A stretch of DNA of 56,699 nt. Origin: Vicinamibacterales bacterium. GTDB taxonomy: Bacteria > Acidobacteriota > Vicinamibacteria > Vicinamibacterales > CAVVIG01. The notes beneath the pieces were generated by a model. It was not told the DNA's origin and did not search any database. It was given only the letters and a program-made list of their open reading frames with translations. This document shows, in pieces, positions 9,422 to 39,585 of this stretch. How positions within the stretch are numbered: position 1 is the stretch's first letter; each line of letters opens with the position of its first letter. The position numbers and the translations under genes are program-made. The DNA lies in assembly GCA_046596625.1 (NCBI GenBank), contig JBKJMH010000044.1, forward strand, positions 1 to 56,699, given 5' to 3'.

Positions 9422-10735
9422 TCAGTTGAGGACGACGCCGCACACGGTGGGGGCGGTGTCGGTCAACCGGACACGCACCCACTCGTTCCGCCGACGACCT
9501 GATGGGATACGGACTTTCAGGTAGTTGCCCGTCACGGCCAGGGTGCCGTCCTCGATCGTCAGCGCGCGGTGCACGGTGTCTCGCTGCGACTCGAGGAATC
9601 TCCGCGTCAGGCGCGCGCCGATCTCGCGCAGTTGCCTCCCCCGCTCCTTGACGACAACACCGGAGGGCCGGTCGGCCATCCGGGAGGCGGCAGTCCCGGG
9701 CCGGTCGGAGTAGGGGAAGACGTGAAGGTGCGTCAGCGGCGCAGCGTCAAGGTACGTCGTCAGTTCCTGGAAGTCGGCCTCGGTTTCACCGGGGAACCCA
9801 ACGATCAGGTCCGATCCGATCGACGCATTCGGAATATCCCGCCGGATCGTGTCGACCAGTCGCGCGTAGAAGGCGACGTCATAGGGACGTCGCATGGCGG
9901 CGAGCATGCGCGGGCTGGCGTGCTGGAGTGGAAGGTGAAAGTGCGGTGCGAAGCAGTTCGAATCCCTGACCAGTTCGACGACGCGCTCGGAGCAGTCCAT
10001 GGGCTCGAGGGAACTGATCCTGAAAAGGACGTGCGGCTCGCCGTTTTCGCGCACGTCACCGAAAGCGTCTCGAAGCGCCATCAGGAGGTCGGGCAGCACA
10101 GCCGGCGACTGGAGGTCGCGTCCGTACGAACCCAGATGTACGCCAGTCAGGGCAACTTCCCTGAAGCCGGACGCGACGATGCGCGTCACCTCGGCCAGCA
10201 CCTGTTCTATCGGCACGCTGCGCGGAGTGCCGCGTGTTTCGGGAATGATGCAATACGAGCAGGGTTGAGCGCAGCCCGTCTGGACGCGCAGCGTGAAGGC
10301 CGTCCGACCCGCGACGCCCGGCTCGATCGCGGAGCCGCACCCGCCGTCACCATCGCCGAACCGTTCCGCCGTAGTGAGGCTCGCGAGGGCATCGTCCTCA
10401 GCAACCAGCGCGCGGACGAATGAGAGCACCTGCGGCTTGTCGTCGTTGCAGACGACGCGAGCCACATTCGGCAACCCCGCAACCTGCACCGGCTCGCGAG
10501 TGGCGTAGCACCCGGTCACGACAATTTTCGCGGAGGGGTTGAGGCGGGCAATGCGGCGAATGGTTTGCCTTCCGCCCTGATCCGCGGTCGCCGTGACGGA
10601 GCAGGTGTTGACGACCACGACATCCGCAGCCTCCGCGGGCGCGGGCCTGGCGCCAGCCGCCAGAAACTGCTCCTCGAACCCGAGCGAGTCCGACTGGTTG
10701 ACGCGGCAGCCGAAGGTGACGATGGCGTACTTCAT
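9422..10735 (-). CDS. MiaB/MtaB-family radical-SAM tRNA methylthiotransferase (MtaB-like)
   Basis: MKYAIVTFGCRVNQSDS...VVVVNTCSVT...VTGCYA (UPF0004 cluster), radical-SAM CAQPCSYCIIP, and a C-terminal TRAM-like end. The start is set to ATG 10733-10735. The 686-aa track ORF reads through the 3' end of purD. Confidence 0.8.
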   Translation of the reverse strand: MKYAIVTFGCRVNQSDSLGFEEQFLAAGARPAPAEAADVVVVNTCSVTATADQGGRQTIRRIARLNPSAKIVVTGCYATREPVQVAGLPNVARVVCNDDKPQVLSFVRALVAEDDALASLTTAERFGDGDGGCGSAIEPGVAGRTAFTLRVQTGCAQPCSYCIIPETRGTPRSVPIEQVLAEVTRIVASGFREVALTGVHLGSYGRDLQSPAVLPDLLMALRDAFGDVRENGEPHVLFRISSLEPMDCSERVVELVRDSNCFAPHFHLPLQHASPRMLAAMRRPYDVAFYARLVDTIRRDIPNASIGSDLIVGFPGETEADFQELTTYLDAAPLTHLHVFPYSDRPGTAASRMADRPSGVVVKERGRQLREIGARLTRRFLESQRDTVHRALTIEDGTLAVTGNYLKVRIPSGRRRNEWVRVRLTDTAPTVCGVVLN

Positions 10736-10764
10736 CGGGGCCACTTGTGATTCGGGGGGCAAGG

Positions 10765-12042
10765 TCAGGCGTGCGCCTGACGCGCCTTGCGCCCGATGTC
10801 GGTGCGGTACTGCATGCCGTCGAAGCTGATGACGCGAACGCCAGCATAGGCGTCGGCGATCGCCTCGGGAAAGTCGGCGCCGCTGGCCACCACAGTGAGA
10901 ACCCGGCCACCCGCCGTGACGATGGCTCCGTCGCTTGCGGCCGTGCCCGCGTGGCAAACCATCACGCCGAGGCGCTCCGCGTCGTCGATACCGGCGATGG
11001 CACGGCCGGACTCCGACGAGTCGGGATAACCGCGAGACGCCAGTACCACACCGACCATCGACTCGGTCGTCATCTCGCACGACTCCTGAGTCAGTCGCCC
11101 TTCGGCCGCTGCAGCGAACAGAGGCGCGAGCGGTTCCGCGATGCGGGGCAGGATGACCTGCGCTTCGGGATCGCCGAGCCGGACGTTGAACTCGATGACC
11201 TTCGGACCCGCCGAGGTCAGCATCAGCCCGACGTAGAGGAAGCCCTTGAAGGGATGTCCCTCCGCCGTCATACCCGCCACGACCGGCGAGACGATCTCGC
11301 GCATGACGCGGGCATGAAGTTCGGCGTCGATCAGGGGGCTCGGCGCGAACGCGCCCATTCCGCCGGTATTCGGTCCCTCGTCGTTGTCGAAGATGCGTTT
11401 GTGGTCCTGGGCGGTGCCAATGGGCAGCGCCCGCTCCCCATCGCACAGCACGAAGAAGGACACTTCGGGCCCGACTAGGCACTCCTCTATAACCAGGCGT
11501 TCTCCCGCGCGCCCGAAGCGACCGCCAGTCATCGAGGCAACGATGGCGTCTTCCGCCTCGGCCAGCGTCTGGGCAACGACCACGCCCTTGCCGGCAGCCA
11601 GCCCATCTGCCTTGAGCACGACAGGGAACCCAAACGAACCGCTCCGAACCACCGCGAGGGCATCGTCGGCCGAATCGGCGGTGTGGAACCTTGCAGTCGG
11701 GACACCATGCCGCTCCATGAAGGCCTTCGCAAAGGCCTTGCTGGTTTCGAGACGTGCCGCCGCAGCGGTGGGTCCGAGCAGCACCCGCCCGTCGGCGGCG
11801 AAGCGGTCGGCCACGCCGACGCTGAGCGGAAGTTCAGGACCGACAACCGTCAGGTCGACTTTCTCGCGGACCGCAAGCGCGGCGATACTGTCAGGACTGC
11901 CGAGGTCGACTGTGTAGATGGGTGAGATTTGGGCAATACCCGGATTTCCCGGTGCGCAGATCACCGAGACACCGGGATCGGAGGCTAGGCGCGCGACGAG
12001 TGCGTGCTCACGCCCTCCACTGCCAAGTACGAGAACTCTCAT
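10765..12042 (-). CDS. purD: Phosphoribosylamine-glycine ligase
   Basis: MRVLVLGSGGREHALVARL...GNPG...ATP-grasp...GPNTGGMGA... Confidence 0.9.
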   Translation of the reverse strand: MRVLVLGSGGREHALVARLASDPGVSVICAPGNPGIAQISPIYTVDLGSPDSIAALAVREKVDLTVVGPELPLSVGVADRFAADGRVLLGPTAAAARLETSKAFAKAFMERHGVPTARFHTADSADDALAVVRSGSFGFPVVLKADGLAAGKGVVVAQTLAEAEDAIVASMTGGRFGRAGERLVIEECLVGPEVSFFVLCDGERALPIGTAQDHKRIFDNDEGPNTGGMGAFAPSPLIDAELHARVMREIVSPVVAGMTAEGHPFKGFLYVGLMLTSAGPKVIEFNVRLGDPEAQVILPRIAEPLAPLFAAAAEGRLTQESCEMTTESMVGVVLASRGYPDSSESGRAIAGIDDAERLGVMVCHAGTAASDGAIVTAGGRVLTVVASGADFPEAIADAYAGVRVISFDGMQYRTDIGRKARQAHA

Positions 12043-12108
12043 TTTTTCAGCGATTTGCGCCGGACAGGTCCGTGGCACTTCGACGGAACGTCCGCGGGGA
12101 GTATTTCG

Positions 12109-12137
12109 TTGACGCGGTCAGGGTTTGGCCCTAGAAT
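12109..12137 (+). promoter_or_regulatory. Sigma70-type promoter candidate for rpsU (TTGACG-17 nt-TAGAAT)
   Basis: TTGACG at 12109-12114, exactly 17 nt of spacer, TAGAAT at 12132-12137. It lies about 95 nt upstream of the rpsU start. Confidence 0.5.
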
Positions 12138-12230
12138 CCGCCGTTGCCGTGATAGCCTAGCATATTTGGTTGTAGCGGCTATTCAACGTGATAACCGTGA
12201 TTTGAGCCACCCGAAAGAGGGGTGATTTTC

Positions 12231-12428
12231 GTGGCAGAAGTGAAGATTCAGGAGGGCGAGTCTATCGAGAGCGCTCTTCGACGCTTCAAGCGGAAGGTGC
12301 AGCAGGAAGACATCATCAAGGATATCAAGAAGCACTCCTTCTACCTGAAGCCGGGCGACAAGCGTCGCGCCAAGCAGGCGCTGGCCCGCAAGCGTAATCG
12401 GAAGAAGCTCCGACGAGAAACGGAGTAG
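12231..12428 (+). CDS. rpsU: 30S ribosomal protein S21
   Basis: (V)AEVKIQEGESIESALRRFKRKVQQEDIIKDIKKHSFYLKPGDKRR. GTG at 12231 is preceded by AAGAGGGG. The track ORF starts 9 nt earlier. Confidence 0.9.
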   Translation: MAEVKIQEGESIESALRRFKRKVQQEDIIKDIKKHSFYLKPGDKRRAKQALARKRNRKKLRRETE

Positions 12429-12452
12429 ACCGACCTAGACGAGGTGGGACCG

Positions 12453-12761
12453 ATGGAGTTCCAGGACAGGACCCTCACGTGCGTGGACTGCGGTGCGGCA
12501 TTCGTCTGGACGGCCGGAGAGCAACAGTTCTTCGCCGACAAGAACTTCACGAACGAACCGAAGCGCTGCAAGTCCTGTAAGACGACGAGGGCAAGCCGCC
12601 CGGCCAGCGCAGTCGTTGCGCGGGAACGGGTGGAAACGGTCACCAACTGTTCGGCGTGTGGCAGGGAAACGACCGTGCCGTTCCGTCCGACCCAGGGTCG
12701 ACCGGTGTTCTGTAAGGACTGCTTCCAATCCCGCAAAGTTGCGGGTGCCGGCAGCATCTGA
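12453..12761 (+). CDS. CxxC-x17-CxxC zinc-ribbon protein (two copies of the module)
   Basis: CVDCG...CKSCK and CSACG...CKDCF pairs. GAGGTG lies 6 nt before the ATG at 12453. Confidence 0.65.
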   Translation: MEFQDRTLTCVDCGAAFVWTAGEQQFFADKNFTNEPKRCKSCKTTRASRPASAVVARERVETVTNCSACGRETTVPFRPTQGRPVFCKDCFQSRKVAGAGSI

Positions 12762-32224: not shown

Positions 32225-33949
32225 ATGCGGTCATATATCGTCTACGTGCTCGGGATCGTCGCGCTGGTCATCCTGACGAGCGCGACCGGCTTCTACGCGG
32301 CTGAAATCGGCACGAACCAGAATCTCGACAGCTACGGCGATGCCCTGTGGTGGGCGATCGTCACCGTCACCACAATCGGCTATGGCGACATCTTCCCCGT
32401 TACCGTGGCGGGACGGTTCGTCGGCGCCTTCCTGATGTTCGCCGGCATCGGTGCGCTCGGCGTGTTCACGGCGTCCATCGCCGCCTACCTCATCAAGTTC
32501 GATCGGCTCGATGCCCTGCGCGTCAGGGGTATGCATCGCCACGTGGTGATCTGCGGCCTCGGCTCGACCGGTGCGCTGCTGACGCAAGCCTTCCAGCGCG
32601 ATGGCTACACGGTGCTGGCGATCGAGAAAGCCGAGGACAACCCGCGCCTCGACGCGGCTCGCGAGGCGGGGGCGGTCGTGCTGATTGGCGATGCCTCGCG
32701 GACGGAGGTCCTGCAACGGGCCCGAGTCGATAGGGCCGCGCACATCGTGATCGTCGCCGGCGCCGATGCGACGAACGTGGAGATTGCGGCGGCAGCGCGT
32801 GCCCTGGTGCACGACTCGGCGGCCAGCGTCTCGTGCGCGGCGCAGATCGAAGACCCTGAACTGTGGTACGCCCTGCGCAGCTGGGACGTCGGCACCCAGG
32901 ACCGCGTGAGGCTCGAGTTCTTCAACGTGACCGAGCTCGGTGCCCGCGCGCTGCTTGCGCGCCATTCGCCCTTCGCGGGAGTCGCCGACGCCGCTGCCGC
33001 CCCACCTCGCGTGCTCATCGTCGGCTCCGGCGCGCTCGGCCAGCACCTGATCGGGCACATGGTGCGGCAGTGGCAGGACGTCGAAGGCGAGACCAAGGCG
33101 CCCCTGCCGATCGCGCTGGTCGATGCTGACGTCGACCGCGTGACCCAGGACCTGCATCATCGCCACCCCGAGTTGCGCACACTCGCCGTAATCACCCCGT
33201 ATGCCCTGGATCTGCGTTCGACCACATTCCAGCGCGGCGCGTTCCTGTTCGACGACACCGGCCTCTGCGCGGTCACGCATGCATATGTCTGCGTCGAGGA
33301 CGAAGGGCTGGCCCTCTCCACGGCGCTGCTGCTGCTGAATCATCTCCGCCAGTACGGCGTGCACGTGATGGTGCGAACGAACCGCGAGGCCGGCCTGGCG
33401 GCGCTGCTGCGCGCGGTCGGCACCCAGGGTTCACGCGGCGTCTCCCACCTGCACGTGTTCAGCCTGCTCGAGCAGGCCTGCCGCCCGGAGTTCGTGCTTC
33501 GTGGCACCAATGAAGTGCTCGCGCGGGCGCTGCACCAGGACTACCTGTCACAGGCATCCCGCCATCAGAATCCGTCGGCTGTTCCGTGGGATGATTTGCC
33601 CGTCGACCTCAAGGAGTCGAATCGACGACAGGCCGATCACATCGCGACCAAGCTCGAAGCGGTGAGGTGCCACATCGTGCCGCTCACCGCGCTCGAAGGC
33701 GATGCCTTTGCGTTCGCTCCAGCCGAAGTGGAGCACCTGGCCGAGATGGAACACGAACGCTGGGTGGCGGAGCGCCGCGCGCAGGGCTGGACGCGCGGCC
33801 CTCGTGATCCGATACAGAAGACCAACCCCAGTCTGGTCTCCTGGGCCGAACTCGATGAGCCGGCTCGCGAGATGAACAGGGGTTCCGTGCGTCGACTGCC
33901 GTTCTTCCTGAATCGCGCGGGCTTCACCGCACACCGTGACAACGCATGA
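32225..33949 (+). CDS. 2TM K+ channel fused to an RCK/TrkA-N domain, a second Rossmann-like domain and tandem C-terminal RyR-like repeats
   Basis: Pore TVTTIGYGD (nt 32360-32386) is flanked by two TM helices. The RCK domain has VVICGLGSTGALL...IGDAS. The second glycine-rich loop is VLIVGSGALGQHL. The C-terminus has LARALHQDY...PWDDLPVDLKESNRRQADHI and VEHLAEMEHERWVAERRAQGWTRGPRD..KTNPSLVSWAELDEPAREMNR, matching the RyR-domain pattern E.LAe..HE.W....GW.yG......P.LvpW.eL. Confidence 0.75.
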   Translation: MRSYIVYVLGIVALVILTSATGFYAAEIGTNQNLDSYGDALWWAIVTVTTIGYGDIFPVTVAGRFVGAFLMFAGIGALGVFTASIAAYLIKFDRLDALRVRGMHRHVVICGLGSTGALLTQAFQRDGYTVLAIEKAEDNPRLDAAREAGAVVLIGDASRTEVLQRARVDRAAHIVIVAGADATNVEIAAAARALVHDSAASVSCAAQIEDPELWYALRSWDVGTQDRVRLEFFNVTELGARALLARHSPFAGVADAAAAPPRVLIVGSGALGQHLIGHMVRQWQDVEGETKAPLPIALVDADVDRVTQDLHHRHPELRTLAVITPYALDLRSTTFQRGAFLFDDTGLCAVTHAYVCVEDEGLALSTALLLLNHLRQYGVHVMVRTNREAGLAALLRAVGTQGSRGVSHLHVFSLLEQACRPEFVLRGTNEVLARALHQDYLSQASRHQNPSAVPWDDLPVDLKESNRRQADHIATKLEAVRCHIVPLTALEGDAFAFAPAEVEHLAEMEHERWVAERRAQGWTRGPRDPIQKTNPSLVSWAELDEPAREMNRGSVRRLPFFLNRAGFTAHRDNA

Positions 33950-35844
33950 GCAGCGAACACCCGTCTTCCCCACACCCGTCGCACCGGCATCGGCGACGCA
34001 GGCGCGTTCGACGGCCAGGCACTGGCCAGGCGCCTGGTCCGCTGCCGCTCGTGGTGGGCGTCACCGGTCACCGTGACCTTCGCCCCGAGGACCTGCCCGC
34101 ACTCGAAGGACTGGTGCGGCGCGTCATCAACGACGTGAAGGACGCGCACCCGCACACCCCGCTGTTGCTGCTATCGCCGCTCGCGGAAGGGAGCGACCGG
34201 CTGGTCGCTCGCGTCGCCCTCGAAGGTGGCGTGCGCCTGGTGGTACCGCTGCCGCTGCCGCTCGAACTGTACGAGCAGGACTTCGTCAGCGACGAGTCGC
34301 GTGCCGAGTTCCGCCGTCTGCTTGGCCTCGCCGAAAGTTCCTACGTGCTGCCGCTCATGCACGGCAACACCGACGAGGGCATCCGACAGTACGGTGACCA
34401 GCGGAACCGTCAGTACGCCCAGGTCGGCGCTCTCATCGCCAGGCAGAGTCAGGTGTTCCTCGCTCTCTGGGACGGCGCAAGCGATGCCGGCAACGACAAG
34501 GTCGGCGGAACCGCGGAAGTTGTCCGGTTCCGACTCGACGGGGTACCGCCAAGCTACGAGCCGACGTCGGCCAGCCCGCTCAGCGACTCGAGCAGCGGTT
34601 CGGTCTATCACCTGATCACGCCGCGCATCGGTCAGCCGCTGCCGCGGAAGGCGCTGACCTCGGAACTCGTGCTGCCCACTCGGCAGTCCGCCGCGTCGTT
34701 CGATGAACTTCAGGGGTGGATGGATCAGTTCAACGAAGATGCCTTACACTTCGACGCGTCGATGGCGCCGGCCCGCCTCACGAGCAAGTCGTATCTCCTG
34801 AACACCACGGAAGACGCGGTCGACGCGACAGCGCGCTCGCTGCCCGCCTCCGCACAGATGACCATGGAGCGTTACGCCGTGGCCGACGCCCTGGCGCTCC
34901 ATTTCGCCAGCCACGCCAGGGCTGCATCGAAGAAGCTCTTTCTCTGGGTGTTCGTGTCGGCGCTGTTCTTCAACCTGTTCCACTCGTTGCCGCACCCCCA
35001 CATTGCGGAACACCCGTCGCTCGGCGAGCGGCTCATCGCCGTTCCGTGGCTGCTGCTACTCTTCCTCGCATCGTCTATCGTCGCGAGCTACTGGATCCAT
35101 CGCGAGGCGACCGAGCAGGATTACCAGAACAAGCACCAGGACTATCGGGCACTGGCCGAAGCCCTGCGCATCCAGTTCTTCTGGCAGGTCGCCGGCGTGC
35201 AGGGTGATGTCGCCGACCATTACCTGCGGAAGCAGCGTGGCGCACTCGAGTGGATTCGCAACGCGCTCCGGGCCTGGGATGCCGAGTCGTCGGCGAGCGA
35301 GGCGCGCGAGGCGGTCGGTGGGTTCGTGCCGGACCGGCTGGCCTACGTCGCCAGGAACTGGGTCAGCGAGCAGCGCAACTACTTCGCCTCGAAGGCGCGC
35401 CGTGAACAGGCGACGCTCGAAGAGGAAGAGAAGAAGATCGAGTGGCTGGTGCGCATCAGCGTGGTGTTGGCCCTGCTCCTCGCAGTGGTGCTGACGGTCC
35501 CGCTCATCATTCCCATCCACGCGCTCGAAGGGGTGAAGCACTGGGTCGAAGAGCCGTGGACGCACGGCATCGTGATGATCGTCATCGTGACGCTGGCCGT
35601 GGTGGCCGGCCTGCGCCACGGCTACAACCAGCAGATGGCGCGCTCCGAGCATGCGAAGCAGTTCGGGCGCATGAGCGAGCTCTTCGATGCGGGGCAGACG
35701 CACCTGTCGGCGCAACTGGACGCCGGACACGTGGAACAGGCGGCGGCGCTGCTGCGCGAGCTGGGCCAGGAAGCGCTGGAGGAGAACGGTGACTGGGTGT
35801 TGCTGCACCGCGAGCGTCCGCTCGAAGTGCCGCACTCGGGCTGA
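33946..35844 (+). CDS. SLOG-like (LOG/YpsA/DprA-type Rossmannoid) N-terminal domain fused to two 2TM modules (SLATT-like)
   Basis: The ATG overlaps the channel-gene stop (ATGA). The N-terminal domain has VVGVTGHRDL, SPLAEGSDRLVA, VVPLPLP and KVGGTAEVV (compare the LOG-type GGxGTxxE). TM pairs lie at about aa 330-385 and 500-556. Each pair is preceded by an amphipathic Y..A......K/R helix (RYAVADALALHFASHARAASKK; RNYFASKARREQATLEEEEKK). Confidence 0.6.
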   Translation: MSSEHPSSPHPSHRHRRRRRVRRPGTGQAPGPLPLVVGVTGHRDLRPEDLPALEGLVRRVINDVKDAHPHTPLLLLSPLAEGSDRLVARVALEGGVRLVVPLPLPLELYEQDFVSDESRAEFRRLLGLAESSYVLPLMHGNTDEGIRQYGDQRNRQYAQVGALIARQSQVFLALWDGASDAGNDKVGGTAEVVRFRLDGVPPSYEPTSASPLSDSSSGSVYHLITPRIGQPLPRKALTSELVLPTRQSAASFDELQGWMDQFNEDALHFDASMAPARLTSKSYLLNTTEDAVDATARSLPASAQMTMERYAVADALALHFASHARAASKKLFLWVFVSALFFNLFHSLPHPHIAEHPSLGERLIAVPWLLLLFLASSIVASYWIHREATEQDYQNKHQDYRALAEALRIQFFWQVAGVQGDVADHYLRKQRGALEWIRNALRAWDAESSASEAREAVGGFVPDRLAYVARNWVSEQRNYFASKARREQATLEEEEKKIEWLVRISVVLALLLAVVLTVPLIIPIHALEGVKHWVEEPWTHGIVMIVIVTLAVVAGLRHGYNQQMARSEHAKQFGRMSELFDAGQTHLSAQLDAGHVEQAAALLRELGQEALEENGDWVLLHRERPLEVPHSG

Positions 35845-35847
35845 GTG

Positions 35848-35871
35848 CCCCCGGCGCCTGCGCCCGGGCGG
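35848..35871. terminator. Imperfect GC-rich hairpin in the 36-nt gap between convergent genes (possible bidirectional terminator)
   Basis: In gcccccggcgcctgcgcccgggcggg, a stem of about 9 bp with two bulges can be drawn by hand. There is no U-tract. Confidence 0.25.
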
Positions 35872-35880
35872 GCAGGGAGC

Positions 35881-37260
35881 CTAGGCCGACGGGGTCTGGG
35901 CCGCGGCCAGCCAGGCGGCCGTCACTTCCGACGCGGTCGAGAAGCGGGCGTTGGCGTCGGACAGGATGCAGCGCATGATCATCGCCGCAGCCTCGGCCCC
36001 GAGGTCGGGGCGCTCGGTGGCGACGTCGGACGGCTTGGTCATGAGCATGCGGCCGAGCAACTGCGGAAATGACTCCGCTGGATACGGCGGCCGGCCGGTG
36101 GCCATGTAGTACATCAGGGCGCCGATCGTGAACACGTCGGCACGCTGATCCGCCGGGTTGCCCATCAGCAGCTCCGGCGCCACGTACGACAGCTCGTGCG
36201 GTGCGGCCTGTCCACGCAGCGTGGCCTCGTTCATCGTCGACAGCAGATCCTGCATGCCGCCGATGCCCGCGCTCGAAATCGCGAGGCGCTCTTCCTTCGC
36301 TGGTTCCCGCACCACCCGGATGATCTCGGGGTGAAGCCCCGAGATGAAGCCGCCGTGCACGTGCACCGCCGCCGTCGCCTCGCTCAACTCGCGCACGAAC
36401 TGCGTCAGCGTCTTGATGGCCAGTCGTCCGTCCGAGCGGACGAGTTCGCCGAGGCTCACGCCAGCCAGCAGGTCGGTGACCACGTACATCATCTCCGCCG
36501 TCTCGCCGAAGTCGCGAACGTGGATGATGTTCGGGTGCATCACTTGCAGGGCGCGCGCCTCGCGCAGGAACCGCGCGCGAATGGCTTCCTTGTTGTCCTT
36601 CTCGGTCGGCCGGTAGACGCGGACCGCAACCGGGCTGCCGAGCATCCGATGCTCGCCGGCGTAGACGACGCTGCCAAATCGACCGATGGCGAGCACTTTC
36701 GTCAGGTCGTAGTTGCCCACGACCAGAGGCGATTCCCTGGACGGTTCGAGCAAGGCCGGCGGAGGTGCAGCCGCTGCGGGTACGGCCGCAGGGGCCACGA
36801 GAGCGAGAGCCGCGGGCGCGCCGCCGCCGTCGGGAATCAGGTCGCCGTCGGTGCCGGGCCGGCGCAGGTGTGCATTGACCCCCTGGACGAGACGCTCGAT
36901 GTGCTGGTCAATCGGCTGAGCAATGGCATCGAACCAGTGCTGCGAGCTGATGAAATACTCCATCGTGCGGGTCGGCATCACGTTCTCGATGCGGACCGGC
37001 ATGAGCGACAGACCCTTGTGGACGGCGCGCTCGACCTCGCGCTGGACCTGGACCGACTTGTTGGAGGCTTCGCTGAAGACCAGCAGCATGAGCCGCGAGC
37101 CTTCGATGCCGTCGATGATCGACTCGGCCCACGGCACGCCGGGCACGATGTCGCGTGGGGCAATCCAGCACGGAATACCGCGCTGCTCGAGCCCCGCGCA
37201 AATCGCGTTCGAGACAACCACGTCCTTCGACGCGTAACTGATGAAGACCACGTGCGCCAT
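35881..37260 (-). CDS. TIR domain fused through an Ala/Pro linker to a degenerate Ser/Thr-kinase-like (pseudokinase) domain
   Basis: The TIR domain has HVVFISYASKD...GIPCWIAPRD...LMLLVFSEASNKSVQVQREVERA (candidate catalytic Glu in REVE) and ...LMPVRI. The kinase fold has IGRFGSVVY, HPNIIHV, YVAPELL and DVFTIGALMYYMATGRPPY. Its catalytic motifs are altered: VAVR (K to R), ISGLHPEII in place of HRDLKPxNI, and SAG in place of DFG. The start is set at the ATG at 37258-37260 because the longer ORF would overlap the upstream terminator. Confidence 0.75.
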   Translation of the reverse strand: MAHVVFISYASKDVVVSNAICAGLEQRGIPCWIAPRDIVPGVPWAESIIDGIEGSRLMLLVFSEASNKSVQVQREVERAVHKGLSLMPVRIENVMPTRTMEYFISSQHWFDAIAQPIDQHIERLVQGVNAHLRRPGTDGDLIPDGGGAPAALALVAPAAVPAAAAPPPALLEPSRESPLVVGNYDLTKVLAIGRFGSVVYAGEHRMLGSPVAVRVYRPTEKDNKEAIRARFLREARALQVMHPNIIHVRDFGETAEMMYVVTDLLAGVSLGELVRSDGRLAIKTLTQFVRELSEATAAVHVHGGFISGLHPEIIRVVREPAKEERLAISSAGIGGMQDLLSTMNEATLRGQAAPHELSYVAPELLMGNPADQRADVFTIGALMYYMATGRPPYPAESFPQLLGRMLMTKPSDVATERPDLGAEAAAMIMRCILSDANARFSTASEVTAAWLAAAQTPSA

Positions 37261-37290
37261 GAGGAAAGCGCCCCGATCATATCGCATCGA

Positions 37291-37329
37291 AAACAAAAAA
37301 AAGGCCGCCGGGTTGAACCCGGCAGCCTT
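37291..37329 (-). terminator. Rho-independent terminator downstream of the AGE-STAS gene
   Basis: The minus strand reads AAGGCUGCCGGG-uucaa-CCCGGCGGCCUUUUUUUUGUUUU. This is a 10-bp stem with one mismatch followed by a U-run. Confidence 0.75.
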
Positions 37330-37356
37330 CTCTCGGTTCTTCTGCGAAGAACGCTG

Positions 37357-39585
37357 TTAGTCGACGAAAGTGAGGCTTTCGCCGAATTCGGTCGCGTTGA
37401 GCGAGTCCTTGACTCCCTGACTCGCGCCGATGACCTGAACGTCCTCATCGGTCCGCAGCTTCTGCTTCCCGAAGATGAGAGCGCGGATTGCGGCCGGCGT
37501 CAGCGTCTTGAGGTCCTTCACGCGAATGATGAGCGTCTCGGGCTGTGCGGCGATGACTTCCTGCAGCTTGGCCTGCAGAGTCGGCAGTGCCATGTGGTCA
37601 GCATCGCCAGCGAGGGTCAGCGTGGCCACGCCCTTGTCCACCGTGCAGTGGGCGGAGAAGTGGGTCAGTCCTTCGGTCGGCGCGATTCGGACCACGATCT
37701 TCACCTGGCCATCCGCCTCCGGGATGGTGACGGTGAGGTTCGCCGCATCGAAGTCGTTGTATTCTTTGCCGTCAACCGTGACCGACTCGATCTTGATGCT
37801 GCCCTTCGGCAGCATGTCAGGCGCCACGCGCAGAATGTTGTCCTTGAACCCGCCCGGCTTCGGCTTGAAGTGCAGGTCGAGCGGCTGCTTGGTGATCAGC
37901 AGGTTGGTGTAGACCGCCGCCAGGTAGCACAGCTCGAACGAGTGGTAGCCGCTCATCGAGTGGCTGCCCTTGTTGCGTTCGGTGCCAAGCAGGTACGGCA
38001 GGCCGTTGGCCAGCACGTTGAAGTAGACCGCGCCCGAATCGTGGTCGAGGAAGAAGGCGCTGTAGAACGCCGACGACTCGCGCGCCTGCTTGAGGTACTC
38101 CGGCTTCTTCAGCGAGCCGTGCAGGATCAGGTAGGCCAGGATGCCCTGTTCCTGCTGCCACCATGCCTTACGGTCGTGGAAGGCGAAGCGGTGAATCGAC
38201 TGGCCCTCCGGCAGGGCGCGCTCCACAACGTCGTACCAGCCGCCGCGCTGCGGGTCGCCGCCGTGCTTGGGCATAAGACCGGCGATCTTCTCGGCCAGCA
38301 CCACGTAGCTGTCGTCCTGCTTCGCATTCACCATGCGCATCAGATTCCAGGCGATCTTGAGGTTGTGACCGACCACCGCGCGGTTCTGCTGCCAGCCCCA
38401 GGTACGGTCGGCGCTCCAGTCCTCGTGGAACTTCTCCTGGACGAAGGCGCTGTTGTCGTAGTCCGGGAAGCGCGTCGCGATGGTGGTTGCCGTGTCGATG
38501 AGCATCTCGAGGTGCTCGGGTTCGTTCGTCGCCAGCGCCAGGTTGATCAGGTACGCCGGGGCGTGATCGCCGACGGAATTCCAGTTCTTCTTGCCGCAGT
38601 TGCGACCGAGTGACTCGGCCTTCGGATTGAACGTGACCGGGTCGATGTGCGAAAAGTAGCCGCCGCCTTCGTAGTCGCGGTAGTACTTGTTGAACATGTT
38701 CAACGTGCGGTCGATGTCCTTGCGGATCTTCGGGTCGCCGGTGATGCGGAAGGTCTGGGTCGGGCCGGCCAGCGCGTAAATCTGCTCGTAGGCCGGGATG
38801 GCGTCCCAGTCGTCACCAAACTCCGACGACAGCAACTTGCGCTCGTGCGCGGCGGCATTGCTGGAGCGGCGCATGCCGGGCACTTCCGCCATGTCCGAGT
38901 TCAGAACCTTCTTGCCCTTCTGCTCGGCAAAGTCGACGGCGTGGTACCAGTAGCAGGTGTTCTCGACCGTGTCGACCGCGCAGAAGTGCTCGCGCAGGTA
39001 GTCGCTGCCCTTCTCGGCGGCTTCGAGGAAGCGTTCGTCGCCGGTCAACAGGTAGGCCGACGCGAAGCCGAAGATCAGGCGCGAGATGGTATCGGTCTCC
39101 TGGCGGGTCGCTTCGATTTTGCGACCGTAGAGGTCGAGCATCGTGCGGTAGTTGCGGTAGTCGACCGGGCCGTCGCCGAACTGGGCGCGGAAGTAGAAAT
39201 TGCCCAGTTCCTGGATCTGGTGAACCCACCAGTCCGGCTTTTCGAACACGAATTCCGTCGGGCCGCGGCCCACGAACACAATGTGCTGCGCCTCGAGTGC
39301 CATCGGCACGTCGGGGTAGAACACACCGTACGAGTATAGGAACCGGCCGGTCTGCAGCATGTCGCGCATCTGCCCGGTGCAGTCGATATACGACTCTCCG
39401 AGGTTGCGCGCCAGCTCGGCGTAGCACGCGCCCGAGTAGCGAATCTGGAATTCCCGGCCATCCGACGTGGCCACGCGGAAGCCGTTACGGTCGGCATCCA
39501 CGCCGGTGACGTAGCCGGCAACCGTATCCGAGAATGCAAACCCTGTCCCTGTCGTCGTATCCGAAAGCGAGTTCTTCACGTCCAT
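37357..39585 (-). CDS. N-acylglucosamine-2-epimerase (AGE)-superfamily (alpha/alpha)6 protein with a beta-sandwich and a C-terminal STAS domain
   Basis: The AGE-type features are ISRLIFGFASAYLLTGDERFLEAAEKGSDYL, GGYFSHID and VGHNLKIAWNLMRM (the GH..E/K.aW pattern). The C-terminal roughly 100 aa are STAS-like (VATLTLAGDADHMALPTLQAKLQEVIAAQPETLIIRVKDLKTLTPAAIRALIF). Confidence 0.6.
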   Translation of the reverse strand: MDVKNSLSDTTTGTGFAFSDTVAGYVTGVDADRNGFRVATSDGREFQIRYSGACYAELARNLGESYIDCTGQMRDMLQTGRFLYSYGVFYPDVPMALEAQHIVFVGRGPTEFVFEKPDWWVHQIQELGNFYFRAQFGDGPVDYRNYRTMLDLYGRKIEATRQETDTISRLIFGFASAYLLTGDERFLEAAEKGSDYLREHFCAVDTVENTCYWYHAVDFAEQKGKKVLNSDMAEVPGMRRSSNAAAHERKLLSSEFGDDWDAIPAYEQIYALAGPTQTFRITGDPKIRKDIDRTLNMFNKYYRDYEGGGYFSHIDPVTFNPKAESLGRNCGKKNWNSVGDHAPAYLINLALATNEPEHLEMLIDTATTIATRFPDYDNSAFVQEKFHEDWSADRTWGWQQNRAVVGHNLKIAWNLMRMVNAKQDDSYVVLAEKIAGLMPKHGGDPQRGGWYDVVERALPEGQSIHRFAFHDRKAWWQQEQGILAYLILHGSLKKPEYLKQARESSAFYSAFFLDHDSGAVYFNVLANGLPYLLGTERNKGSHSMSGYHSFELCYLAAVYTNLLITKQPLDLHFKPKPGGFKDNILRVAPDMLPKGSIKIESVTVDGKEYNDFDAANLTVTIPEADGQVKIVVRIAPTEGLTHFSAHCTVDKGVATLTLAGDADHMALPTLQAKLQEVIAAQPETLIIRVKDLKTLTPAAIRALIFGKQKLRTDEDVQVIGASQGVKDSLNATEFGESLTFVD

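Follow-up and report, generated by a model that had tools for sequence, protein, structure and literature searches.

A TIR domain fused to a conserved pseudokinase in Vicinamibacterales: a candidate sensor and signal generator of a Thoeris-like module

Introduction

In the type I Thoeris system, the TIR protein ThsB is paired with ThsA, a SIR2–SLOG protein whose SLOG domain senses 3′ cyclic adenosine diphosphate ribose (3′cADPR) (bioRxiv 10.64898/2025.12.03.692087). A December 2025 preprint (Yirmiya et al. 2025) extends Thoeris to types V–XI and includes two-effector operons: type VII combines a TIR protein with the SLATT membrane effector ThsH and uses canonical cADPR, and type X combines a TIR protein with the ion channel ThsK, for which the signal is unknown (bioRxiv 10.64898/2025.12.03.692087). 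The tables of the preprint also include “SLOG and 4TM” (4TM, four transmembrane segments) as a predicted but unverified effector class (bioRxiv 10.64898/2025.12.03.692087). The present study concerns a gene in a 56,699-nucleotide stretch of DNA from a Vicinamibacterales bacterium of the Acidobacteriota (GenBank assembly GCA_046596625.1, contig JBKJMH010000044.1, positions 1 to 56,699 of the forward strand; hereafter, the window). This gene encodes a TIR domain fused to a degenerate kinase-like domain, and it lies beside genes for a predicted SLOG-4TM protein and a K+ channel.

A separate literature deals with bacterial pseudokinases, for which a 2025 review recognizes seven named families, including ActPs1–3, GLW, DLHK, CP1, and DYD (PMC12599244). 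Our searches for literature on TIR–kinase or TIR–pseudokinase fusions found nothing relevant. Bioinformatic and structure-prediction analyses reported here indicate that the kinase-like domain belongs to a conserved pseudokinase family. With a little better than even confidence, we propose that the TIR-pseudokinase gene is the putative sensor and signal generator of a three-gene, Thoeris-like nucleotide-signaling module.

Results and Discussion

A TIR Domain Joined to a Kinase Fold

The open reading frame (ORF) runs on the minus strand from an ATG at 37260 to a stop codon at 35881–35883 and encodes a protein of 459 amino acids, the N terminus of which reads MAHVVFISYASKD. The Pfam profile TIR_2 (PF13676) matches residues 5–124 (E 1.5e-21; 77.6 bits, cut-off 28), and Pkinase matches residues 186–450 (E 8.7e-22; 78.2 bits, cut-off 31.7), both far above threshold. 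An AlphaFold2 (AF2) model built from 25 homologues, with a predicted local distance difference test (pLDDT) score of 79, contains a TIR domain, a disordered linker with pLDDT below 50 at residues 135–176, and a bilobal kinase fold. The model thus confirms the kinase fold that a preliminary description of this DNA, made from the letters alone, had proposed to be fused to a TIR domain. The features of the gene, with the evidence for each, are as follows.

35881..37260, minus strand: TIR-pseudokinase gene (ORF and translation; Pfam TIR_2 and Pkinase; ~50 homologues)
36865..37260, minus strand: TIR domain, residues 1–132, of the “CW[IM]APRDI / MEYFISxxH” subfamily (Pfam TIR_2; conservation)
37036..37038, minus strand: codon of Glu75, at the catalytic TIR Glu position (codon read; profile column; invariance)
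36733..36864, minus strand: Pro/Ala-rich linker, residues 133–176 (pLDDT; no invariant residue)
35884..36732, minus strand: predicted pseudokinase domain of Hanks-type fold, residues 177–459 (Pfam Pkinase; Foldseek; motif columns)
36619..36621, minus strand: Arg214 in place of the β3 Lys, in VAVR (codon read; alignments; Arg in 120 of 120 relatives)
36322..36345, minus strand: ISGLHPEI in place of HRDxKxxN, without the catalytic Asp and without the Asn (codons read; alignments)
36265..36273, minus strand: SAG in place of DFG, without the metal-binding Asp (codons read; alignments)

For comparison, related proteins (labels beginning with P) and loci (labels beginning with L) were retrieved. About 50 full-length homologues combine a TIR with the kinase-like domain at 40–93% identity, one of them named as coming from a Vicinamibacterales metagenome-assembled genome (MAG). 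A search of 1.84 billion cluster representatives returned just two TIR-pseudokinase representatives (P0030 and P0051), then tandem kinase proteins (described below), and then generic kinases at 25–32% identity, so the TIR-pseudokinase family is narrow. The linker has no invariant position among its 44 residues and varies in length within the family.

A Conserved Pseudokinase Family

In HMMER alignments to PknE and PknB, VAVR of the window protein pairs with VALK/VAVK, ISGLHPEI with HRDVKPEN/AN, and SAG with DFG, while the αC Glu (in REAR) and the APE motif are retained. A MAFFT alignment with PknB gives the identical register for the window protein and for all 120 of its best relatives, down to ~40% identity, and none of the profile alignments restores a Lys, HRD, or DFG. 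Hence, the β3 Lys, the HRD Asp, the catalytic-loop Asn, and the DFG Asp are replaced by Arg, Gly, Ile, and Ser, respectively, in agreement with the three substitutions given in the preliminary description, and the catalytic positions are likewise replaced in every relative. All 120 carry VA[VI]R, [ILV][SC]GLHP[EG]I, [ST][AG]G, APE, and a GR[FL] glycine loop. Because the same replacements recur in 120 of 120 relatives, the domain is, to judge from the alignments, an old and selected pseudokinase, as had been suspected, rather than a product of decay; the recent decay of a kinase was considered and rejected, as the degenerate motifs are fixed throughout the family. The sequence comparison further shows that the replacement residues are evidently under strong purifying selection. 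Within the TIR-pseudokinase family, 47 of the 283 pseudokinase residues are invariant, among them R194, R214, E234, G308, L309, P311, S329, G332, L348-R349-G350, and A361-P362-E363.

The fold itself is that of the PknB-type (Hanks) kinases: in Foldseek comparisons the AF2 kinase domain superposes on PknB/Stk1 kinases with template-modeling (TM) scores of 0.83–0.87. The PADLOC models for the PD-T4-6 kinase defense system also match strongly (E 4.2e-41); since the kinase active site is absent here, this match reflects the fold only. With the Lys, both Asp residues, and the Asn replaced, the domain cannot work in the manner of PknB or PD-T4-6 kinases. Among the named pseudokinase families, ActPs and GLW likewise have all three motifs degraded, and a β3 Lys-to-Arg change is also found in ActPs2; however, GLW has its GLW and LLLL/W motifs, DLHK keeps the Asp and Asn, and ActPs2 shows a D-to-N change and a deletion of DFG (PMC12599244). 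The R / SGLHPE / SAG set described here matches no described family logo, as compared through the descriptions in that review, which makes no mention of TIR (PMC12599244). The present family comes from Acidobacteriota-type soil bacteria and is fused to a TIR domain or to an active kinase.

The fusion to an active kinase is seen in the relatives beyond the ~50 TIR fusions, which form a sizeable group of cytoplasmic proteins of ~570 residues with two kinase stretches (P0052–P0120; e.g., P0063, at L178:6001-7737). Their N-terminal kinase is intact (VAVK/HRDLKPxN/DFG), and their C-terminal half is the same pseudokinase, at ~50% identity and with identical degenerate motifs; an intact kinase thus stands at the N terminus there, where the window protein has a TIR domain. 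By its architecture this layout presumably resembles that of JAK JH1-JH2 and of the plant tandem-kinase immune receptors. The genes around P0063 are housekeeping genes and uninformative, and no second kinase able to pair with the pseudokinase was found in the window. No description of the tandem family, with R / SGLHPE / SAG at its C terminus, was found in the bacterial pseudokinase review (PMC12599244).

The TIR Domain

The TIR domain is the best conserved part of the protein, with 45 of its 132 residues invariant in the family. In a profile alignment, E75 shares its column with the catalytic Glu of Bacillus cereus ThsB (E85, within RWVRYEI; sequence from the preprint supplement) and with that of SARM1 (E642, within WVHKEIV). 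E75 is invariant in 25 of 25 members of the TIR-pseudokinase family and in 77 of 77 members of its wider TIR subfamily, drawn from many phyla. The Glu codon located at about 37036–37038 in the preliminary description is therefore the one that aligns with the catalytic column, with no loss of the residue, and the domain is apparently active as judged by these conserved positions. The subfamily is recognizable by the motifs CW[IM]APRDI and MEYFISxxH, which gave more than 600 matching stretches in GTDB genomes. In the 80 loci kept from these, the TIR domain precedes a variety of others, including TPR, FGE-sulfatase, DUF4189, WD40, and Sel1. The BB-loop region (APRDIxPG) does not vary across phyla. 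In the TIR-pseudokinase, Gln replaces the Trp of the WxxxE motif, and the best sequence matches in the PDB include the TIR domains of TLR1/2/6 and Hydra TRR2.

The Adjacent SLOG-4TM and K+ Channel Genes

Two genes on the plus strand converge on the TIR-pseudokinase gene.

33946..35844, plus strand: 632-residue SLOG-4TM membrane protein, the proposed receiver and effector (AF2/Foldseek fold; hydrophobic segments; conserved adjacency to TIR genes)
34042..34680, plus strand: predicted SLOG-like Rossmann domain, residues 33–245 of the 632-residue protein (predicted structure)
32225..33949, plus strand: gene for a K+ channel with TrkA_N/RCK and RyR domains (Pfam Ion_trans_2, TrkA_N, and RyR; motifs read)

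The 632-residue protein has no match in Pfam, PADLOC, or NCBIfam, and a profile search of the PDB with its family likewise found none. Its AF2 model (pLDDT 87.5; pTM 0.85) consists of an N-terminal Rossmann-like domain followed by long helices, and the best fold match of the N-terminal domain in the PDB is YpsA (2nx2; E 2.5e-5, TMt 0.64), followed by ShosA, DprA, the MoCo carrier protein, TM1055, and LOG. By its predicted fold, then, this domain is a member of the SLOG superfamily, a relationship visible from the model alone, as the sequence-level searches of Pfam and the PDB came back empty. The protein also has four hydrophobic segments that resemble two 2TM units. Although the window protein has no Pfam match, its homologue P0159 carries a precomputed match to PF14015 (DUF4231), which we take to be SLATT-related. 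The SLOG-containing N terminus of TRPM2-type channels binds ADP-ribose and is joined to a cation channel; the 632-residue protein is similar in joining a SLOG fold to membrane helices, and weak Foldseek matches to TRPM2/TRPM8 were obtained (probability 0.1–0.4). However, its membrane part comprises four helices of another topology, so that the likeness is a lead only.

The SLOG-4TM gene and the TIR-pseudokinase gene are convergent and 36 nucleotides apart. Upstream of the SLOG-4TM gene, and translationally coupled to it by an overlap of stop and start codons (ATGA), lies the channel gene. The channel protein combines the selectivity filter TTIGYGD with a TrkA_N/RCK domain, in which the dinucleotide motif (GxGxxG) is intact as GLGSTG, and a RyR domain at the C terminus. 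The proximity of a RyR-domain channel to a TIR gene echoes the link between cADPR and the ryanodine receptor in animals.

Recurrent Pairing of TIR and SLOG-4TM Genes

The trio of TIR-pseudokinase gene, convergent ~630-residue gene at a distance of 2–80 nucleotides, and channel gene is kept among relatives at 53–93% identity, where the outer flanks are also shared. In L092–L094 (62% identity), the trio remains complete even though neither outer flank is the same. Beyond the close relatives, three unrelated loci with distant homologues of the 632-residue protein (41–44% identity) each adjoin a TIR gene of a different architecture: an 837-residue TIR protein together with a channel in Verrucomicrobiae, a convergent 1002-residue protein combining a degenerate kinase-like domain with a TIR, and a 429-residue TIR protein.

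These associations were examined from both directions. The forward test covered 27 metagenome loci in which a 632-residue-family gene is flanked on either side by 3 kb or more; a TIR ORF was present in 13, lying within 400 nucleotides in 12 of these, and Pfam adds TIR proteins in two more (~15 of 27). In a reverse test, 80 genome loci were chosen by the TIR motif alone, and the 632-residue family or its SLOG domain was sought within 10 kb: 14 loci carry one or the other, where fewer than one in 80 would be expected by chance even on the assumption of one copy per genome, a gross overestimate. Five of the 80 loci carry the channel (L009 and four unrelated loci); overall, the channel is co-conserved in L001–L004, L092–L095, L029, L066, and L068. 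The TIR partners of SLOG-4TM proteins include a TIR alone (~237 residues), TIR+Sel1, TIR–NB-ARC–TPR, and a second fusion of a degenerate kinase with a TIR, and further SLOG-4TM neighbors are nSTAND1 and AAA_35 proteins. The order and orientation of the pairs vary, and the two genes lie on the same strand in the distant loci L048, L097, L135, and L138. A variable input domain, a constant TIR domain, and a constant SLOG-membrane partner are together what a system of sensor, signal generator, and receiver should look like.

Several individual loci merit separate mention. The pairing of channel and TIR recurs in Verrucomicrobiae (L095), Bacteroidales (L029), Alphaproteobacteria (L066), and Chthonomonadales (L068). 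The kinase–TIR protein of 1002 residues (L096:3918-10899) is a second, independent pseudokinase–TIR fusion, with an N-terminal kinase-like domain that lacks HRD and DFG and a TIR_2 domain at residues 635–725; the SLOG-4TM homologue with which it converges is itself preceded by a TPR-S/MAP3K_TRAF_bd/guanylate-cyclase protein. Among the 14 loci of the reverse test, L067 (~10001–12490) comes from a Methanobacteriota archaeon MAG; here a gene for a TIR protein of this subfamily converges on a SLOG-4TM-like gene, which suggests either that archaea as well as bacteria have the pairing or that the bin contains foreign sequence. The sole full-length match in a genome, L009 (CALQBJ020000001.1; 57,250 bases), has 90% identity and the same gene order, and its record is titled “MAG: Bifidobacterium breve”; because its content, 64% G+C, and synteny match Vicinamibacterales MAGs, the title appears to result from an error of binning or annotation. 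Lastly, in L005–L008 (41–44% identity; e.g., L005:2210-9419), the TIR-pseudokinase gene is the last of a same-strand, STAND-centered cluster, in the order DUF4062/TIR-like protein (505 residues), nSTAND1 NTPase with TPR repeats (979 residues), unknown protein of 376 residues, TIR-pseudokinase. A preprint describes DUF4062 as a TIR-like NADase used in defense, and it mentions pseudokinases only among its references.

A Proposed Thoeris-like Module and Its Alternatives

The locus resembles Thoeris in that a TIR with a catalytic Glu adjoins a SLOG-fold putative sensor joined to membrane helices, together with an ion channel, and in that the extra domain of the TIR partner varies while the receiver is constant. 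We infer every functional step of the module from sequence and predicted structure, and the following scheme is proposed. The pseudokinase would serve as the input, either by mediating regulated self-association or by binding a trigger, which could be a protein or a ligand that bears phosphate. The TIR domains, once brought together, would cleave or cyclize nicotinamide adenine dinucleotide (NAD+) to yield a messenger derived from ADP-ribose (ADPR), and binding of this messenger to the SLOG domain of the 632-residue protein would cause its four membrane helices to open or oligomerize. The cotranscribed K+ channel, with its NAD-binding RCK domain and its RyR domain, might likewise respond to this messenger, or else to declining NAD+. 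The outcome would be loss of membrane potential and K+ and an arrest of growth, and, by analogy with Thoeris, the purpose is most likely a defense of the abortive-infection type.

There are, however, clear differences from Thoeris. The TIR domain is fused to a conserved pseudokinase, belongs to another TIR subfamily, and scores below the Pfam ThsB_TIR (PF08937) cut-off (18.6 bits against 21.2, with only residues 47–93 matched). The preliminary description had called the protein a trigger-sensing, ThsB-like component: the SLOG-4TM and K+ channel neighbors and the recurrent adjacency to TIR genes lend substance to that idea, but, as the ThsB_TIR cut-off is missed, “ThsB-like” is an analogy and not a statement of membership. 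No TIR of the CWIAPRD type occurs in the portion of the preprint’s supplementary tables that we considered (bioRxiv 10.64898/2025.12.03.692087). Two putative effectors are present at once, and the TIR and SLOG-4TM genes converge instead of sharing an operon, here as in every close relative.

Besides the convergent arrangement, a number of other observations weigh against a Thoeris-like defense module. The flanks are housekeeping genes (GlgX, a GlcNAc-2-epimerase/STAS protein, enolase, GlgC, and a phosphoglycerate mutase family protein, His_Phos_1), and gene order at the locus is conserved throughout the lineage, so that it resembles neither a typical defense island nor a gene of patchy distribution; no defense genes lie within the ~10 kb checked on each side. 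PADLOC recognizes neither the SLOG-4TM nor the channel neighbor. About 12 of the 27 well-flanked SLOG-4TM loci have no detected TIR, and distant TIR-pseudokinases (41–47% identity) lack a SLOG-4TM neighbor, being found in the cluster with DUF4062 and nSTAND1 or alone. Finally, two “SLOG and 4TM” candidates from other bacteria, which may or may not be homologous to the 632-residue protein, gave no protection against phage in Escherichia coli (bioRxiv 10.64898/2025.12.03.692087).

Two alternative accounts concern the purpose of the locus, one of them a serious rival and the other a lesser one. The serious rival, although we consider it on the whole somewhat unlikely, retains the same wiring and gives it a physiological role: a vertically inherited Vicinamibacterales pathway in which an NAD derivative made by the TIR domain, or the level of NAD+ itself, gates the K+ channel and the SLOG membrane protein, with the pseudokinase reading an internal cue such as the state of the paralogous tandem kinase or the energy or carbon status of the cell. 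It stays serious because the genes are convergent, the flanks are syntenic housekeeping genes, and both TIR-pseudokinases without SLOG-4TM and SLOG-4TM loci without TIR exist. The intact dinucleotide motif of the RCK domain, a G+C content of the gene (0.67) that resembles that of the window (0.64), the occurrence of the same pseudokinase beside an active kinase in cytoplasmic tandem proteins with housekeeping contexts, and the failure of the “SLOG and 4TM” candidates in E. coli all fit such a role. On the other hand, SLOG-4TM proteins elsewhere are paired with TIR–NB-ARC–TPR, nSTAND1, and AAA_35 proteins, which are types characteristic of conflict systems; the extra domain of the TIR partner is freely swapped, as in immune sensors; and distant TIR-pseudokinases accompany DUF4062 and nSTAND1. 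A more specific form, which we regard as distinctly unlikely, would have a metal-independent, ligand-binding pseudokinase switch the TIR domain, whose (c)ADPR-type product would gate the RyR K+ channel and the SLOG-4TM protein; the pathway would then be a prokaryotic counterpart of the animal cADPR/ADPR-RyR/TRPM2 axis, serving physiology as well as or instead of defense. The lesser rival, rather more doubtful still, is that the protein acts alone as an abortive-infection effector, its pseudokinase sensing a trigger and its TIR domain depleting NAD+ in the manner of the TIR effectors of CBASS, Pycsar, and SPARTA, with the neighbors as passengers of synteny. The absence of SLOG-4TM and channel neighbors from P0049 and the L005–L008 clade, the terminator-bounded transcription unit of the gene with its own −10-like box (see below), and the many members of the TIR subfamily in which the TIR is joined, within one protein, to repeat or sensor domains are in line with this. 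But the trio outlasts the change of both outer flanks in L092–L094, and SLOG-4TM and TIR genes adjoin one another across phyla in variable order and orientation, far above a plausible chance rate.

The other two alternatives concern the chemistry of the domains. In one, the kinase-like domain is not dead and instead has a noncanonical activity (such as AMPylation or glutamylation, as in SelO and SidJ) or binds ATP or another nucleotide without metal through Arg194, Arg214, His310, and Arg349, and this chemistry, more than binding as such, controls the TIR domain. The invariance or near-invariance of R194, R214, G308, L309, P311, E312, S329, G332, and L348-R349-G350 and the retention of the adenine-pocket Val/Ala residues (V199, V211, and A212) and of the αC Glu would suit this account, and both pseudokinases with a β3 Lys-to-Arg change and Arg-rich clefts are noted as still able to bind ATP (PMC12599244). 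We nevertheless think it very improbable, given that all three of the metal- and base-providing residues are missing, that no migrated Asp or Lys is apparent in the alignment, and that families lacking all three motifs nearly always lack ATP binding (PMC12599244). The remaining alternative, that the TIR domain is a protein–protein adaptor without an enzymatic role, as in animal TLR/MyD88, draws on the TLR and Hydra TIR domains among its best PDB matches and on the Gln in place of the WxxxE Trp. It is hard to reconcile with the invariance across phyla of the Glu at the catalytic position and of the APRDIxPG BB-loop region, or with a conserved neighbor of nucleotide-binding SLOG fold; moreover, the bacterial TIRs characterized to date are, to our knowledge, NAD+-processing enzymes, and we consider an adaptor role barely credible.

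The combination of TIR and SLOG-4TM proteins is already on record as an unverified candidate class (bioRxiv 10.64898/2025.12.03.692087). What is apparently new is the fusion of the TIR domain to a pseudokinase, the joint presence of the SLOG-4TM protein and the K+ channel–RCK–RyR protein, and the vertical conservation of the locus. If the proposed module is real, the pseudokinase represents a new kind of input domain for a bacterial TIR signaling enzyme. The sensor regions of known Thoeris TIR proteins are poorly understood, and a sensor with a kinase fold is amenable to study, as the standard tools of kinase research can be applied to its ligand, its partner, and its dimer interfaces. The pairing with the SLOG-4TM protein likewise provides a handle on a predicted class of Thoeris effector that has not yet been validated. 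The K+ channel with its RCK and RyR domains would offer a bacterial test bed for the gating of RyR- or SLOG-domain channels by ADPR derivatives made by TIR domains, a link that has long been discussed in eukaryotes and the mechanism of which is unsettled. The data also delineate a family of conserved bacterial pseudokinases (R / SGLHPE / SAG), which is found in two architectures, TIR–pseudokinase and kinase–pseudokinase.

Expression Signals and Flanking Sequences

Two features upstream of the TIR-pseudokinase gene bear on its expression.

37296..37334, minus strand: intrinsic terminator of the upstream GlcNAc-2-epimerase/STAS gene (18-bp stem and T-tract)
37276..37281, minus strand: −10-like box TATGAT, 15 nucleotides before the ATG, inside the conserved TCGATGCGCTATGATCGG (DNA alignment of seven loci)

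The ATG lies 35 nucleotides past the terminator stem. The strong terminator that had been reported shortly before the gene is indeed there. The hairpin and T-tract are conserved in L009, L001, L002, and L003, as is TCGATGCGCTATGATCGG between the terminator and the ATG in the window and in these same loci. A box related to TATGAT is also found in L092, where the upstream gene differs. A scan of 35780–37480 with the σ70 consensus found no full promoter. The conserved box and its position suggest that the gene is transcribed from a separate promoter with a very short leader; the lack of a Shine–Dalgarno sequence would then be accounted for.

No conserved Shine–Dalgarno sequence was found upstream of the gene, as had been stated in the preliminary description. 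The accompanying view that its expression signals are unusual does not hold up: by a crude count, GGAG or GAGG precedes just 12 of the 36 ORFs in the window, so a start of this kind is not out of the ordinary here, and the TATGAT box is conserved. A TTG at 37296 was considered as an alternative start and rejected, as the conservation of both protein and DNA begins at the ATG at 37260 and the TTG lies inside the terminator T-tract. Also rejected was an 805-residue ORF on the plus strand (36196–38613), antisense to the TIR-pseudokinase gene and its upstream neighbor; its product is of low complexity and rich in Arg, Ala, and Gly, and this ORF can almost certainly be put down to the high G+C content and is not a gene.

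At the other end of the gene, 36 G+C-rich bases (35845–35880) separate the convergent stop codons, and in relatives the gap is as short as 2–7 bases. As a T-tract terminator was not found within this gap, the TIR-pseudokinase and SLOG-4TM transcripts may overlap at their 3′ ends. The gene directly upstream of the TIR-pseudokinase gene (37357–39585, minus strand), which follows GlgX, encodes a 742-residue GlcNAc-2-epimerase-like protein with a C-terminal STAS domain; it occupies the same place in most relatives (L001–L004 and L089–L091) but not in L092–L094, and its presence probably reflects synteny rather than membership of the module.

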